A stretch of DNA of 7,089 bases, from the IMG/VR virus record IMGVR_UViG_3300029577_000149; one strand, written 5' to 3'. Of this stretch, positions 2,504 to 6,563 are shown piece after piece; within the stretch, counting starts at the first letter, position 1, and each line of letters opens with the position of its first letter. The position numbers and the translations under genes were made by a program. The stretch comes from a virus (Duplodnaviria > Heunggongvirae > Uroviricota > Caudoviricetes). The notes beneath the pieces were generated by a model. It saw nothing but the letters and a program-made list of their open reading frames with translations. It had not been told where the DNA came from and ran no database searches.

Positions 2504-3178
2504 TTAGGCTTTGATTTTGTATCTTCTTGGTTTTCCTGAGAAAATCACTGTACCAATTATAGAGCAATTACCGTTGATCTTAATGTAAGGCTCAGGCCAG
2601 TTTGGGTTTAACGCTTTGAGATAACGCTGTGTCCCATCTTCTATCAACCTTTTGAAGGTGGTTTCACCTGTATCGTGCATCAATGCAATAACGTCGTCAC
2701 CGTGGCAGGCAGGTACTTCAGGATCGACAAAAATCATGTCTCCCGGGCGGTACTCATCAATCATTGAATCACCTATCACCCGCAAGATATAAGTCATTTC
2801 CCCACAGGGTACAGGGCAGGGATACGTTTCTGCTGTGCTCAAATCAACCTCAGAATATCCAACTTCTTTCCATGCTCCGGCCTGTACCCATGATATGACA
2901 GGGACTAATGTGATTTGTTTATTAGTGATTGAAACATCAGGTTTTTTTGTGATGTTCGTTGTCTGGTGTTCTTGATCGAGCCATCCGACAGGCAGGTCGA
3001 AACATTTTTCGATGTGTCGTGCCATGCTGTCACCGATATTTTTAGTAGCACCATCTCCCATAAACCTGCTGGTCTGGGTTGGCTCGCGATCAATCATAGT
3101 GGCAAAGGAAGAATTCCCGCCAACACCATCTCTCAGTTTTCTGGCGTTAGACCGCCGGATGTCATGGATTGTTTTCAT
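2504..3178 (-). CDS. cI: CI-like prophage repressor with C-terminal S24 (LexA-type) autopeptidase domain, 224 aa
   Basis: ORF-track 2504..3178 (-). C-terminal half carries the S24 hallmarks: candidate Ala-Gly cleavage site (VQAGAW), Ser nucleophile in GDSM, and Lys in TFKRL, alignable by eye to lambda CI and LexA C-terminal domains. Divergent from a Cro-like gene across an operator-bearing intergenic region. Confidence 0.85.
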   Translation of the reverse strand: MKTIHDIRRSNARKLRDGVGGNSSFATMIDREPTQTSRFMGDGATKNIGDSMARHIEKCFDLPVGWLDQEHQTTNITKKPDVSITNKQITLVPVISWVQAGAWKEVGYSEVDLSTAETYPCPVPCGEMTYILRVIGDSMIDEYRPGDMIFVDPEVPACHGDDVIALMHDTGETTFKRLIEDGTQRYLKALNPNWPEPYIKINGNCSIIGTVIFSGKPRRYKIKA

Positions 3179-3193
3179 AACGAAATTAAAACT

Positions 3194-3263
3194 CTTGTAC
3201 CGTTAAGGTACAAGTATCTTGAAGGTTCATTTCAATCATGTAATATGTACACCGGAGGTACAT
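3194..3263. promoter_or_regulatory. OR region: two TGTAC-N7-GTACA operators flanking a candidate pR; possible leaderless pRM
   Basis: Operator 1 at 3194-3214 is a perfect 8-5-8 palindrome (CTTGTACC gttaa GGTACAAG); operator 2 at 3245-3263 is ATGTAC accggag GTACAT. Candidate pR: TTGAAG 3219-3224, 16-bp spacer, TAATAT 3241-3246. On the minus strand TTTAAT sits at -12..-7 relative to the cI ATG, suggesting a leaderless cI mRNA as in lambda pRM. Confidence 0.5.
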
Positions 3264-3268
3264 ATTGT

Positions 3269-3469
3269 ATGAAAGCGTATTGGGACTCTTTAACCAAAGA
3301 ACAGCAGGGCGAGTTGGCCGGAAAAGTTGGCTCAACATCTGGCTACTTACGGCTGGTTTTCAATGGCTATAAAAAAGCCAGTTTTGTGCTGGCTAAAAAA
3401 CTTGAGCAATGCACGTCAGGTGCAATTACGAAATCTGACTTAAGACCGGATATCTATCCGAAAGATTAG
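3269..3469 (+). CDS. cro: Cro-like HTH regulator (YdaS / Cro-CI family), 66 aa
   Basis: ATG at 3269-3271 inside ORF-track frame 2966..3469, preceded by GGAGGT (3255-3260). The stretch of that ORF upstream of 3269 overlaps cI antisense and is not coding. Translation MKAYWDSLTKEQQGELAGKVGSTSGYLRLVFNGYKKASFVLAKKLEQCTSGAITKSDLRPDIYPKD fits a small HTH regulator; the RPDI-type C-terminus matches my memory of YdaS-like proteins. Confidence 0.75.
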   Translation: MKAYWDSLTKEQQGELAGKVGSTSGYLRLVFNGYKKASFVLAKKLEQCTSGAITKSDLRPDIYPKD

Positions 3470-3500
3470 CAGAACACTTTCAATTTTTAACCACAGAACG

Positions 3501-4074
3501 ATGAGGCTAATCGTGGGTAAGCATCACTGGAAAATAGAAAAACAGCCTGAGTGGTACGTGAAAGCTGTCAGAAAAACTATCGCGGCGTTGCCGGGTGGTT
3601 ACGCNNNNNNNNNNNNNNNNNNNNNNNNATGTAACAGAAAACGCTTTATTCAACCGCCTTCGTGCAGATGGCGATCAGATTTTCCCGCTGGGATGGGCAA
3701 TGGTTTTACAGCGTGCTGGTGGCACTCACTTCATTGCTGATGCTGTGGCGCAGTCTGCAAATGGCGTCTTTGTGTCTCTTCCTGACGTCGAGGATGTGGA
3801 CAACGCCGATATTAACCAGCGTCTGCTGGAAGTCATTGAACAGATCGGCAGTTATTCAAAACAGATTCGTTCAGCAATCGAAGACGGTGTAGTGGAACCG
3901 CATGAGAAGACAGCAATTAACGACGAGCTGTATCTCTCAATTTCGAAGCTGCAGGAGCATGCAGCACTTGTCTACAAAATTTTTTGCATTTCAGAAAGTA
4001 ATGACGCCCGCGAGTGTGCAGCTCCGGGCGTCGTGGCGTCGATTGCTTCTGGTTGTGGAGAAACTAACGCATGA
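3501..4074 (+). CDS. YdaT-like (CII-position) regulatory protein, interrupted by a 24-N gap
   Basis: ORF-track 3501..3740 (frame 0, before the gap) and 3595..4074 (frame 1, after the gap) are most simply one gene whose frame across the gap is unknowable. Sits directly after cro as in Rac/CP-933P ydaS-ydaT. Start uncertain: ATG 3501 has no Shine-Dalgarno; GTG 3513 has GAGG at 3503-3506. Family from memory. Confidence 0.5.
3605..3628. other. Run of 24 N (assembly gap or masked bases)
   Basis: Literal n characters at 3605-3628. Confidence 0.95.
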
Positions 4075-4409
4075 ACAGTTTAACAACACACTACCGTCGC
4101 TCGCAACTGATTGCGCTTCCTTTACCGGGTGGAAAAGCGAAGGTGGAATATTGCTATGCAGTGAATGTACCAGGTGACAGGGAAATTGTAACCCACAGCT
4201 TTGCAGAGTGGGCTGTGGGTGATTTCAACCGGCAGAAGGAGACAGTCCTTTGCGACAAGTTAACCGCTGGTTCAAAGATCACTACGGAGTGCCCGTCAGA
4301 GTCATTCGTTGGGAGCCGGAAACACAACGGGTTATCTACCTCCGCGAAGGTTATGAGCATGAATGCTTCAGTCCGCTCGAACAGTTTCGTCGTAAATTCA
4401 GGGAAATAG
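4071..4409 (+). CDS. Hypothetical protein; ORF as written is 112 aa but the C-terminal third is probably out of frame
   Basis: ATG 4071 overlaps the upstream stop (ATGA), suggesting translational coupling. The first ~56 codons ([57 protein letters not shown]) look protein-like; the remainder is Ser/Thr-rich junk-like sequence. Confidence 0.4.
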
Positions 4410-4429
4410 AGGTCGGTCATGAGCACTAA
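4250..4429 (+). CDS. Alternate-frame coding segment (-1 relative to the 4071 ORF): either the true C-terminus of a frameshifted gene or a separate small TTG-initiated gene
   Basis: Own translation of frame 2: [62 protein letters not shown], stop TAA 4427-4429. AAGGAG at 4236-4241 lies 8 nt before TTG 4250. The frame opens after TGA 4220-4222. Too short to appear in the ORF track. Confidence 0.35.
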
Positions 4430-5360
4430 ATTAACCGGCTATGTATGGGATGGTTGCGCTGCATCAGGCATGAAGTTATCCAGCGTGGCAATTATGGCCC
4501 GCCTGGCTGATTTCAGTAATGACGAAGGTGTGTGCTGGCCATCAATTGAAACCATTGCCCGTCAGATTGGCGCGGGGATGAGTACCGTCAGAACGGCTAT
4601 CGCACGGCTGGAAGCAGAAGGCTGGTTAACGCGTAAGGCGCGTCGCCAGGGTAACCGCAATGCGTCGAATGTTTATCAGCTTAACGTTGCGAAGCTTCAG
4701 GCAGCGGCATTTTCTCAACTGTCAGATTCTGACCCGTCAAAATCTGACGCATCAAAATCTGACCCGTCAAAATTTGATGCGTCGAAATCTGGCAAAAAAG
4801 CGGGTTTTCACCCGTCAGAATCTGGCGGGGATCCGTCAGTAAAATCAAAACATGATCCGTCAGATAAAAAACCTTCTCGTCCGGACGCTTCGCAACCGGA
4901 CACGCAGACGGCTGAACAGGATTTTTTAACTCGCCATCCTAATGCGGTTGTATTCAGCCCTAAAAAGCGCCAGTGGGGGACGCAGGATGATTTGACCTGC
5001 GCACAGTGGCTCTGGAAAAAAATCATCGCCCTGTACGAGCAGGCTGCCGAATGTGACGGCGAGGTGGTTCGTCCCAAAGAACCGAACTGGACAGCCTGGG
5101 CAAACGAAATTCGCCTGATGTGTGTACAGGATGGGCGTACTCACAAACAAATCTGCGAGATGTACAGCCGCGTCAGCCGCGATCCGTTCTGGTGCCGTAA
5201 CGTGCTCAGCCCGTCGAAGCTGCGGGAAAAATGGGATGAGCTTTCCCTGCGCTTATCGCCGTCCGTCAGCACGTACACCGAAAAACGCGAGGACCCGTAC
5301 TTCAAAGCCAGTTACGACAACGTGGACTACAGCCAGATCCCGGCAGGATTCAGAGGGTGA
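4419..5360 (+). CDS. Phage replication initiation protein (lambda O-like architecture), 313 aa
   Basis: ORF-track 4419..5360 (+), AGAGG Shine-Dalgarno at 4407-4411. N-terminal winged-helix-like segment (WPSIETIARQIGAGMSTVRTAIARLEAEGWL), a central low-complexity repeat linker (DPSKSDASKSDPSKFDASKS) encoded by the iterons, and a Trp/Cys-rich C-terminal domain. Confidence 0.75.
   Translation: MSTKLTGYVWDGCAASGMKLSSVAIMARLADFSNDEGVCWPSIETIARQIGAGMSTVRTAIARLEAEGWLTRKARRQGNRNASNVYQLNVAKLQAAAFSQLSDSDPSKSDASKSDPSKFDASKSGKKAGFHPSESGGDPSVKSKHDPSDKKPSRPDASQPDTQTAEQDFLTRHPNAVVFSPKKRQWGTQDDLTCAQWLWKKIIALYEQAAECDGEVVRPKEPNWTAWANEIRLMCVQDGRTHKQICEMYSRVSRDPFWCRNVLSPSKLREKWDELSLRLSPSVSTYTEKREDPYFKASYDNVDYSQIPAGFRG
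4729..4788 (+). repeat. Four tandem 15-bp iterons inside the replication gene; candidate origin of replication
   Basis: CTGACCCGTCAAAAT (4729-4743), CTGACGCATCAAAAT (4744-4758), CTGACCCGTCAAAAT (4759-4773), TTGATGCGTCGAAAT (4774-4788). Further CCGTCAG copies at 4812, 4833 and 4857, then an A/T-rich tract at about 4840-4872. Same layout as ori-lambda within gene O. Confidence 0.6.
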
Positions 5361-5362
5361 TC

Positions 5363-5851
5363 ATGAGTCTGTTAAATGACGTTCAGAAATTCATTGAAGC
5401 CCATCCGGGGTGTACTTCCGGAGACATTGCGGATGCTTTTGCAGGTTACTCACGGCAGCGCGTTCTGCAGTCTGCAAGCAAGTTACGTCAGAGTGGGCGT
5501 GTGGCTCACCGTTGTGAAGGAGATACACGCAGACATTTCCCGCGCCTGACTGAGAGAGCGCAGGAACCAGAACCACAACCAGTTCGAGAAACCAGACCTG
5601 TGCGCAATTTCTATGTCGGCACTAACGATCCACGGGTGATTTTGTGCCTGACCCGCCAGGCTGAAGAACTGGAGTCCAGGGGCTTATACCGTCGTGCTGC
5701 AACCGTGTGGATGGCGGCATTCCGTGAAAGCCACTCCCAGCCAGAACGAAACAAATTTCTGGCGCGTCGTGAGCTGTGTTTACGGAAAAGCAGCAAGCGC
5801 GCTGTATCGAGTGATGAGTGGTATCTGTCAGGGAATTACGTGGGGGCGTAA
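5363..5851 (+). CDS. PerC-family-like transcriptional regulator with an N-terminal winged-helix-like segment, 162 aa
   Basis: ATG 5363 inside ORF-track 5357..5851; AGAGGG Shine-Dalgarno at 5352-5357; overlaps the upstream stop (TGA 5358-5360). C-terminal motif ELESRGLYRRAATVWMAAF resembles the GLWRRAA-type core I remember for PerC/Pch proteins; unverified. Confidence 0.5.
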   Translation: MSLLNDVQKFIEAHPGCTSGDIADAFAGYSRQRVLQSASKLRQSGRVAHRCEGDTRRHFPRLTERAQEPEPQPVRETRPVRNFYVGTNDPRVILCLTRQAEELESRGLYRRAATVWMAAFRESHSQPERNKFLARRELCLRKSSKRAVSSDEWYLSGNYVGA

Positions 5852-6177
5852 TGACGACGTTAACTCAATGCCAGCAGCAGGTGCTGGATATGCTGATTTC
5901 TTATCAGAAAGAACGTGGCTTCCCGCCAACCAATCAGGAGGTGGCAACCATGCTGGGATACCGTTCAGTGAATGCAGCGGTGGAGCATCTTCGCGCACTG
6001 GAGAAAAAAGGCGTCATCACGATAAAGCGTGGCGTGGCCCGGGGCATCACGCTTCATACCGCGGTGAAGGACGACGACAGCGAGGCGGTCGGGATTATCC
6101 GCTCACTGCTTGCCGGTGAGGAAAACGCCAGGCTGCGTGCAACCCACTGGTTACATAAGAGGGGCCTGAAAGTATGA
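5851..6177 (+). CDS. LexA N-terminal DNA-binding-domain homolog lacking the S24 peptidase domain, 108 aa
   Basis: ATG 5851 overlaps the upstream stop (TAATG) inside ORF-track 5818..6177. MTTLTQCQQQVLDMLISYQKERGFPPTNQEVATMLGYRSVNAAVEHLRALEKKGVITIKRGVARGITL aligns by eye along its length with the E. coli LexA N-terminus ([68 protein letters not shown], from memory). No Ala-Gly/Ser/Lys protease module follows. Confidence 0.75.
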   Translation: MTTLTQCQQQVLDMLISYQKERGFPPTNQEVATMLGYRSVNAAVEHLRALEKKGVITIKRGVARGITLHTAVKDDDSEAVGIIRSLLAGEENARLRATHWLHKRGLKV

Positions 6178-6563
6178 AGCTGATCCTGCCTTTCCCGCCC
6201 AGCGTGAACACGTACTGGCGACACCCCAACAAAGGGGCGTTTGCAGGTAAGAGCCTGATAAGCGCGGCGGGGCGAAAATTTCAGAGCGCGGCGTGCGCAG
6301 CAATAGTTGAACAGTTACGTCGTCTGCCGAAACCAACGTCGGCACCTGCTTCAGTGGAGATCGTGTTGTTTCCTCCGGATAACAGGATCCGCGATCTGGA
6401 CAACTATAACAAGGCGCTGTTTGACGCCCTGACCCACGCGGGGGTGTGGGAAGACGACAGTCAGGTGAAAAGAATGCTGGTGGAGTGGGGACCGGTTATC
6501 CCGGAAGGGAAGGTCGAGATCACTATCAGTAAGTACGAGAAAACGGCGGGTGCAGCCGCCTGA
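6174..6563 (+). CDS. rusA: RusA-family Holliday junction resolvase, 129 aa
   Basis: ORF-track 6174..6563; ATG overlaps the upstream stop (ATGA). Motifs LPFPPSVNTYWRH and RDLDNYNKALFDALTHAGVWEDDSQV match RusA ([39 protein letters not shown], from memory). Confidence 0.85.
   Translation: MKLILPFPPSVNTYWRHPNKGAFAGKSLISAAGRKFQSAACAAIVEQLRRLPKPTSAPASVEIVLFPPDNRIRDLDNYNKALFDALTHAGVWEDDSQVKRMLVEWGPVIPEGKVEITISKYEKTAGAAA

Follow-up and report, generated by a model that had tools for sequence, protein, structure and literature searches.

In bacteriophage lambda the replication origin lies inside the gene for the initiator O, between the N-terminal DNA-binding and C-terminal domains. It contains four 18-bp iterons (∼ 20-24 bp apart, annotated at O codons 116-144) that precede an A/T-rich stretch. 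Lambda O has a Phage_rep_O N-terminal domain, terminates in ...NTDWIYGVDL and is followed by P. Here we describe a 313-residue initiator encoded in a viral DNA stretch of 7089 bases (IMG/VR record IMGVR_UViG_3300029577_000149; the whole stretch is referred to as the window), which is the early region of an SfII/SfIV/SfV/CPS-53/e14-type lambdoid prophage. Its gene resembles that of lambda O in that a repeat array followed by an A/T-richer stretch separates two domains, the second of which (aa 176-277) is homologous to residues 181-270 of lambda O (BLASTP, E 3e-25). It differs from lambda in its N-terminal domain (HTH_36), in its repeats (six 13-bp palindromes with a 15-bp phase, codons 101-136), in the absence of a P gene and in its C-terminus, ...IPAGFRG.

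This C-terminus belongs to a DnaT-type tail that is also found in Rac YdaU, the O proteins of Gifsy-1 and SPN3UB, and gp15 of Shigella phage 75/02. The N- and C-terminal domains of these proteins differ from those of the window initiator and, unlike it, they have their own DnaC-clade loader encoded immediately downstream (YdaV, DnaC and gp16 respectively). In Escherichia coli DnaT (dnaTC operon) the tail motif likewise stands at the end of a spacer, which is poorly conserved in DnaT and disordered in our model of the initiator. DnaT and, as proposed here, the initiator would both act at the step just before DnaB-DnaC delivery. However, DnaT has neither a sequence-specific DNA-binding domain nor iterons; it possesses a globular three-helix domain (PF17948) and is recruited by PriA/PriB, not by an origin. 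DopC, which with DopE was described in Cellvibrionales and Oceanospirillales, is a fusion of HTH_36 and DnaT_C (Brezellec et al., 2017; PMC5509034). It thus also joins an HTH_36 N-terminal domain to a DnaT-derived C-terminal element, but that element is a globular domain, and DopC is chromosomal, has no iterons and is paired with the P-like DopE. Finally, phiP27 L17 has a 61% identical N-terminal domain and four copies of the same iteron motif at the same position, but a different C-terminal half, no DnaT-type tail, and its own IstB-like loader and DnaB helicase.

On balance we think it probable, judging from sequence comparison, that an SfII/SfIV-type lambdoid phage has its lytic replication origin in this region, inside the gene of its own initiator, and that the initiator docks the host DnaB-DnaC complex through its DnaT-type tail. 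An origin within the initiator gene is ordinary for lambdoid phages. What is out of the ordinary is a replication module of a single gene, and a DnaT-type tail that comparison links cleanly to loaders of the DnaC type.

Repeats within the initiator gene

The original prediction placed four tandem 15-bp iterons (4729-4788), three further CCGTCAG copies and an A/T-rich tract (about 4840-4872) inside the initiator reading frame, in the layout of ori-lambda, and all of these features were recovered. Tandem Repeats Finder reported 4.3 copies with a period of 15 at 4728-4791 (consensus TCTGACCCGTCAAAA). When both strands are considered, the repeat is better described as an imperfect palindrome of 13 bp, GTCArAWTCTGAC, of which there are five phased copies and a sixth (Table 1). 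The six matches (≤ 2 mismatches) fall within 106 bp; shuffled sequences gave a mean of 0.78, and six were reached in 1/200 shuffles. CCGTCAG is present nine times in the window against 0.72 expected, a number reached in 0/200 shuffles, with seven of the nine copies on the + strand (4293-5263). The three further copies noted previously are those at 4812, 4833 and 4857.

The repeats and the A/T stretch (codons 140-151) lie wholly within the 313-residue open reading frame (ORF), where they code for the linker peptide SDSDPSKSDASKSDPSKFDASKS...; the position of the repeats is equivalent to that of the annotated lambda iterons. Copies of CCGTCAG also occur in other reading frames of the gene (4559, 4585 and 5263) and outside it (4293), thus the signal resides in the DNA and is no by-product of a peptide repeat. 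In a codon-shuffle control on the initiator gene any 10-mer reached at most three copies, compared with seven observed. The A+T content peaks at 73% (30-bp window, 4840-4869) against 51% for the whole window, and by analogy with ori-lambda the half-site and A/T stretch that follows the iterons is the likely unwinding element. An array of repeated candidate sites between two domains, with an A/T stretch behind it, is the arrangement of lambdoid intragenic origins. A search of the window for DnaA boxes returned none, and a simple scan of 3100-5500 gave no sigma-70-like promoter.

We compared 80 loci, drawn from different species, in which this C-terminal domain family is encoded; 70 of their initiator genes were usable for a repeat scan. 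At least four regularly spaced repeats were found in 59/70, at a median position of 45% along the gene, i.e. in the linker between the domains. These counts are conservative, because the scan misses the more degenerate iterons of lambda itself. The repeat sequence varies by lineage. The window motif is present in four to eight copies, at the same nucleotide positions and with the same 15-bp phase, where the N-terminal domain is 77-90% identical (loci L103, L118, L122 and L126), and in four copies in the more distant phiP27 L17, but it occurs only 0-1 times in 65 initiators with other N-terminal domains. Its presence tracks N-domain identity and neither the C-terminal domain nor the loader. The repeat sequence therefore follows the DNA-binding domain, as expected of an initiator and its iterons.

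The DnaT-type tail and the adjacent loader

The initiator matches PHROG 391 ('replication initiation O-like', E 3e-135) and also PHROG 277. Its N-terminal domain (about aa 1-99) has a winged-helix core assigned to HTH_36, with weaker matches to GntR, PaaX, DnaD_N and RP-C. Phage_rep_O (PF04492), which matches lambda O and Gifsy-1 O, does not match the window initiator, which is thus a mosaic and no full-length O orthologue. The C-terminal 156 residues gave no matches in Pfam and NCBIfam. A phmmer search of PDB sequences matched the N-terminal domain only (MarR-type proteins), and a Foldseek search of the PDB with an AlphaFold2 model of aa 158-313 returned nothing. Homologue searches with either half of the protein yielded chiefly fragments of close relatives; the profile built for the C-terminal domain family covers 7889 representative clusters. 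The model has a confident helical core (mean predicted local distance difference test score, pLDDT, 81.9), whereas the last 35 residues are disordered (pLDDT < 62 in the tail).

The last nine residues of the initiator (SQIPAGFRG, aa 305-313) match the E. coli DnaT terminus (SQIPPGFRG) at eight of nine positions. When the family profile was aligned with DnaT by hhalign, the tail alone was aligned (20 residues, E 8e-7). As in DnaT, IPxGFRG stands at the extreme C-terminus behind a spacer, here disordered. The full motif reads RDxNxxSxPDxxIPxGFRG; in the window tail its front half (RDxNxxSxPD) is replaced by REDPYFKASYDNVDY, while many members of the C-domain family terminate in RCVNHISEPDTEIPPGFRG or RDVNAISEPDNTIPEGFRG. 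Among 104 DnaT orthologues 11/20 tail positions are invariant, compared with 0/6 in the preceding spacer. The three-helix single-stranded DNA (ssDNA)-binding domain of DnaT (PF17948) was undetected in the window initiator. The tail is also portable among phages. SfV orf39 and ST64B sb42 carry an identical 24-residue tail on an unrelated C-terminal domain, together with a different N-terminal domain and different repeats, and the initiators of Stx2c phages have only these last 24 residues and the downstream genes in common with the module. Our literature searches turned up no function for the DnaT tail or for YdaU.

Unlike lambda, the initiator is followed by genes that had been judged not to encode a helicase loader. 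Pfam agrees: the downstream products are PerC-like, LexA-like (DNA-binding domain) and RusA proteins, and neither P, DnaC nor DnaB was found next to the initiator. Searches by tblastn for E. coli DnaC, YdaV, lambda P and DnaB gave no matches in the window, in the complete SfIV genome or in 80 viral loci that carry this initiator (≤ 5 kb of flank per side), although the initiators of these loci are 98-100% identical and offer little diversity. The absence of a loader thus has support beyond the window. The 54 annotations of SfIV include no helicase and no loader. Gene order in SfV, ST64B and mEp390 is as in the window, and SfII, SfIV, SfV, ST64B, mEp390 and mEp460 all lack a loader of their own.

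Rac had been cited as a contrast, with ydaV following ydaU. YdaV does follow, but YdaU shares the tail, which makes it the key clue. Canonical tails occur directly upstream of a DnaC-clade gene on at least five unrelated scaffolds: the DnaT domain (DnaT of E. coli and S. houtenae, next to DnaC), DUF1376 (Rac YdaU, ending in ...VNTVSLPDSAIPPGFRG, next to the DnaC-like YdaV), Phage_rep_O (Gifsy-1 O; SPN3UB PrpO has the same tail and neighbour), 75/02 gp15 and an ORF of Klebsiella Kp4885-1. The tail decays as the loader diverges. Aeromonas and Vibrio initiators with degenerate tails (KPPGFN, KPEGFK, PPPGWE) precede DnaC-like loaders 39-52% identical to YdaV; the tail is gone in mEpX1 gp46 and phiP27 L17, which precede IstB-like loaders (27-29% identical to YdaV), and in lambda O, which precedes P.

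The association was scored in 77 lambda-O-family genome loci from different species. A P homologue is the next gene in 0/17 loci with a DnaT-type tail and in 40/60 with other tails (Fisher p = 3e-7, indicative only, since the loci are not phylogenetically independent and the value overstates the evidence); in all 40 the P gene overlaps the initiator stop codon. Three of the 17 have a DnaC-clade loader next (L111, L114 and L119), and in the remainder the next gene encodes a PerC, Dam, DUF1627, DUF977 or ParB-HTH protein. Recurrence of the tail on unrelated scaffolds is a stronger argument than the Fisher test. Where a taxon is named, the loader-less loci with the tail belong to Enterobacterales, except for two contigs binned as Bacillota/Veillonella, which have the look of E. 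coli prophage placed in the wrong bin; a few others are from uncultured bacteria. Enterobacterales is reportedly the group with chromosomal dnaC (Brezellec et al., 2016).

Several further observations concern tails and loaders in this family. P-linked initiators (among L104-L173) nearly always have W-rich acidic tails, NTDWxxGL or WNxxEAWExxL, which may be the P-specific counterpart of the DnaT-type tail. Two additional tail classes have no recognized loader downstream: ...AWNSIWKQ... / ...TWNKIWAEC... in Proteus, Morganella, Edwardsiella, Sodalis and Acerihabitans, and ...EWDLTKTMTAEKLNQMIxEGY in Aeromonas (L127-L129, L132, L136, L138, L145, L148, L149, L153, L156; L164, L172, L174). Aeromonas phage pAEv1818 gp25 (305 aa; L092 851-1768) contains a true DnaT domain (PF17948, E 2e-16) and a degenerate tail (...KPPGFN), with a DnaC-like loader directly downstream; it looks like a phage-borne DnaT-DnaC pair. 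Three Bacillota/Veillonella contigs from metagenome-assembled genomes (L101, L105 and L151) hold E. coli-type prophage initiators, probably through mis-binning or contamination.

Proposed mechanism and rival explanations

We propose that the HTH_36 winged-helix domain binds the six palindromic iterons (4721-4826) to form an O-some-like complex, and that the DNA would then open in the half-site and A/T stretch. The C-terminal half consists of a lambda-O-type domain and, behind it, a flexible tail that ends in the DnaT/YdaU motif ...D-x-x-x-I-P-x-G-F-R-G. With no P, DnaC-like or DnaB-like protein from the phage, the tail, perhaps aided by the O-type domain, would dock host DnaB6-DnaC6 at the opened origin, as DnaT is thought to do at restart forks and as YdaU and Gifsy-1 O would do with their own DnaC-like partners. 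Because the tail is shared with DnaT and with DnaC-paired proteins and no loader of its own is present, the phage probably borrows host DnaC. From the co-occurrence of the tail with DnaC-clade loaders and its exclusion from loci with P, we infer that it may contact DnaC or DnaB-DnaC. The original prediction that the C-terminal domain may recruit host DnaC/DnaB directly thus has comparative support as far as the partner is concerned, but the relevant element would be the disordered tail and not a globular domain. The tail looks like a loader-specifying adaptor, the DnaT type going with DnaC, whether the gene for DnaC lies next to that of the initiator or, in Enterobacterales, the protein comes from the host. 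We speculate further, with slightly less than even confidence, that the last 10-20 residues (...PDxxIPxGFRG) are a portable peptide that docks DnaC or DnaB-DnaC, and that O-family tails in general specify the loader, with the DnaT type for DnaC and the W-rich acidic type (NTDWxxGL, WNxxEAWExxL) for P.

Several points weigh against this mechanism. The A/T tract is modest and weaker than that of lambda. The window tail keeps only the last 9-11 of the 19 residues of the DnaT motif, and the tail/loader statistics suffer from the shared ancestry noted above. A 2026 cryo-electron microscopy study of the preprimosome states that the means of DnaB/DnaC recruitment is unknown and favours the N-terminal domain of DnaT (PMC13377028). 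Deletion of DnaT residues 154-179 lowers ssDNA affinity about twofold and reduces cooperativity, with a lower Hill coefficient (Liu et al., 2014; PMC4132743), thus the tail may act on DNA or on oligomerization. Our literature search found no binding, unwinding or replication data for this initiator family.

The DnaT deletion data also lend weight to the rival that survives best, in which origin and initiator are as described but the tail engages PriA, PriB, SSB or DnaB itself, or promotes ssDNA binding or filament formation, with loading through a PriA-type restart primosome or the O-type domain. DnaT does work with PriA and PriB (PMC13377028), and the end of the tail (FRG) is basic. However, the same cryo-electron microscopy study places the PriA/PriB contacts on the globular C-terminal domain and acidic linker of DnaT, not on the tail. 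The recurrence on at least five unrelated globular scaffolds argues for a common external partner over self-docking, and neither PriA, SSB nor ssDNA binding predicts that presence, decay and absence of the tail should depend on which type of loader is adjacent and how far it has diverged. We regard this explanation as rather unlikely.

It is less likely still that an unrecognized phage loader or DnaB adaptor is hidden among the early proteins. Several early genes have no assigned function, and lambda P lacks relatives at the fold level by which a sequence search could recognize a new family. The candidates are the 112-residue ORF, the DUF4222 ORF, the PerC-like protein with its extra winged helix, and the DUF968/HNH and KilA-N proteins. 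Yet the genes that follow tail-bearing, loader-less initiators vary by species, so that no one conserved candidate emerges, and known P and DnaC-like genes overlap the initiator stop codon wherever they are present. Least credible is that the repeats are a slippage-made, low-complexity peptide linker in a defective prophage remnant without origin activity: the in-frame repeats do code for a (D/A)(P/A)SKS linker and truncation or fusion affects many of the E. coli copies, but the motif is palindromic, has additional copies out of frame and outside the gene, and is kept with the N-terminal domain across genera while the linker peptide drifts, and the gene is full length in the window and intact in isolated infectious phages.

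Gene context, prevalence and significance

The window features are listed in Table 1.

Table 1. Features of the 7089-base window, numbered from its first base.
Feature	Position	Strand	Source
S24 repressor	2504-3178	-	Pfam, NCBIfam, PHROGs
cro-like gene	3269-3469	+	
cII (CP76)-like gene	3595-4074	+	
112-aa ORF	4071-4409	+	PHROG 1170, E 2e-69
59-aa ORF	4250-4429	+	Pfam DUF4222, E 9e-19
Initiator gene, 313 aa, mosaic lambda-O-like	4419-5360	+	ORF list; PHROG 391
Winged-helix DNA-binding core of N-terminal domain (aa 23-70)	4485-4628	+	Pfam HTH_36 (PF13730), E 4e-11
Iterons 1-5, 13-bp imperfect palindromes, 15-bp phase	4721-4793 (starts 4721, 4736, 4751, 4766, 4781)		
Short G+C hairpin CGGGTGAAAACCCG between iterons 5 and 6	4801-4814		Terminator-like scan
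Iteron 6, GTCAGAATCTGGC	4814-4826		
Two CCGTCAG half-sites (4833, 4857) in moderately A/T-rich stretch; candidate unwinding region	4833-4872		
Lambda-O-type C-terminal domain (aa 176-277)	4944-5249	+	
Portable disordered tail REDPYFKASYDNVDYSQIPAGFRG; DnaT-type core DYSQIPAGFRG at 5325-5357	5286-5357	+	
PerC-like gene	5363-5851	+	Pfam PF06069, E 1e-9
LexA-like gene (DNA-binding domain)	5851-6177	+	Pfam PF01726, E 3e-19
RusA	6174-6563	+	Pfam, NCBIfam, PHROGs

The two ORFs directly upstream of the initiator overlap by 160 nt in different frames, each with family support, and public records annotate either one or the other. Within the cII (CP76)-like gene 24 bases (3605-3628) are N, i.e. masked or unknown. 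Classical PerC is only about half as long as the PerC-like protein, in which an added N-terminal winged-helix-like part (aa 6-68, weak MarR/BilQ-type matches) precedes the PerC/ANR domain (aa 96-152).

Matches to the window were found in 3617/5426 complete E. coli genomes, in 586 of them over ≥ 80% of its length, and isolated phages including SfII, SfIV, Kati and vB_EcoM-689R6 match the initiator region at 97-98% identity. An in-frame deletion recurs in E. coli prophages on many contigs (proteins P0167-P0179). It joins 4419-4658 to 6384-6563 at a GNR/DNR microhomology, giving a 138-residue product of initiator aa 1-80 and RusA aa 71-129, and takes out the origin, the C-terminal domain and the PerC-like and LexA-like genes. 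Two circular, phage-sized E. coli 'plasmids', NZ_CP081716.1 (37.7 kb) and CP085522.1 (41.5 kb), carry an 89%-identical initiator copy (loci L182 and L183). Neither has a plasmid replicon type, and both probably represent phage genomes that are episomal or have been excised.

Public records label the protein variously as 'primosomal protein' or 'replication protein O', but it is not DnaT, nor is it orthologous to O over its full length. The Eru1-3 replication types of Stx phages have helicases or primases in the parts of the two reports available to us (PMC8044961, PMC8951638). A keyword search of the accessible text of PMC8951638 gave no mention of DnaT, primosomal protein or PerC, and the module apparently falls outside the Eru types described there.

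About two-thirds of complete E. coli genomes contain the module, as do serotype-converting Shigella phages; Stx2c phages have part of it. In the literature we found no explanation of how these loader-less phages load their helicase. The shared tail ties the firing of a phage origin to the recruitment of DnaB-DnaC by DnaT, and the comparative pattern narrows the question to nine residues, one peptide. If the proposal is correct, it would account for the ability of a very common phage group of E. coli, Shigella and Salmonella to replicate with a single replication gene, and it would identify the long-sought contact through which DnaB-DnaC takes over from the PriA-PriB-DnaT preprimosome.

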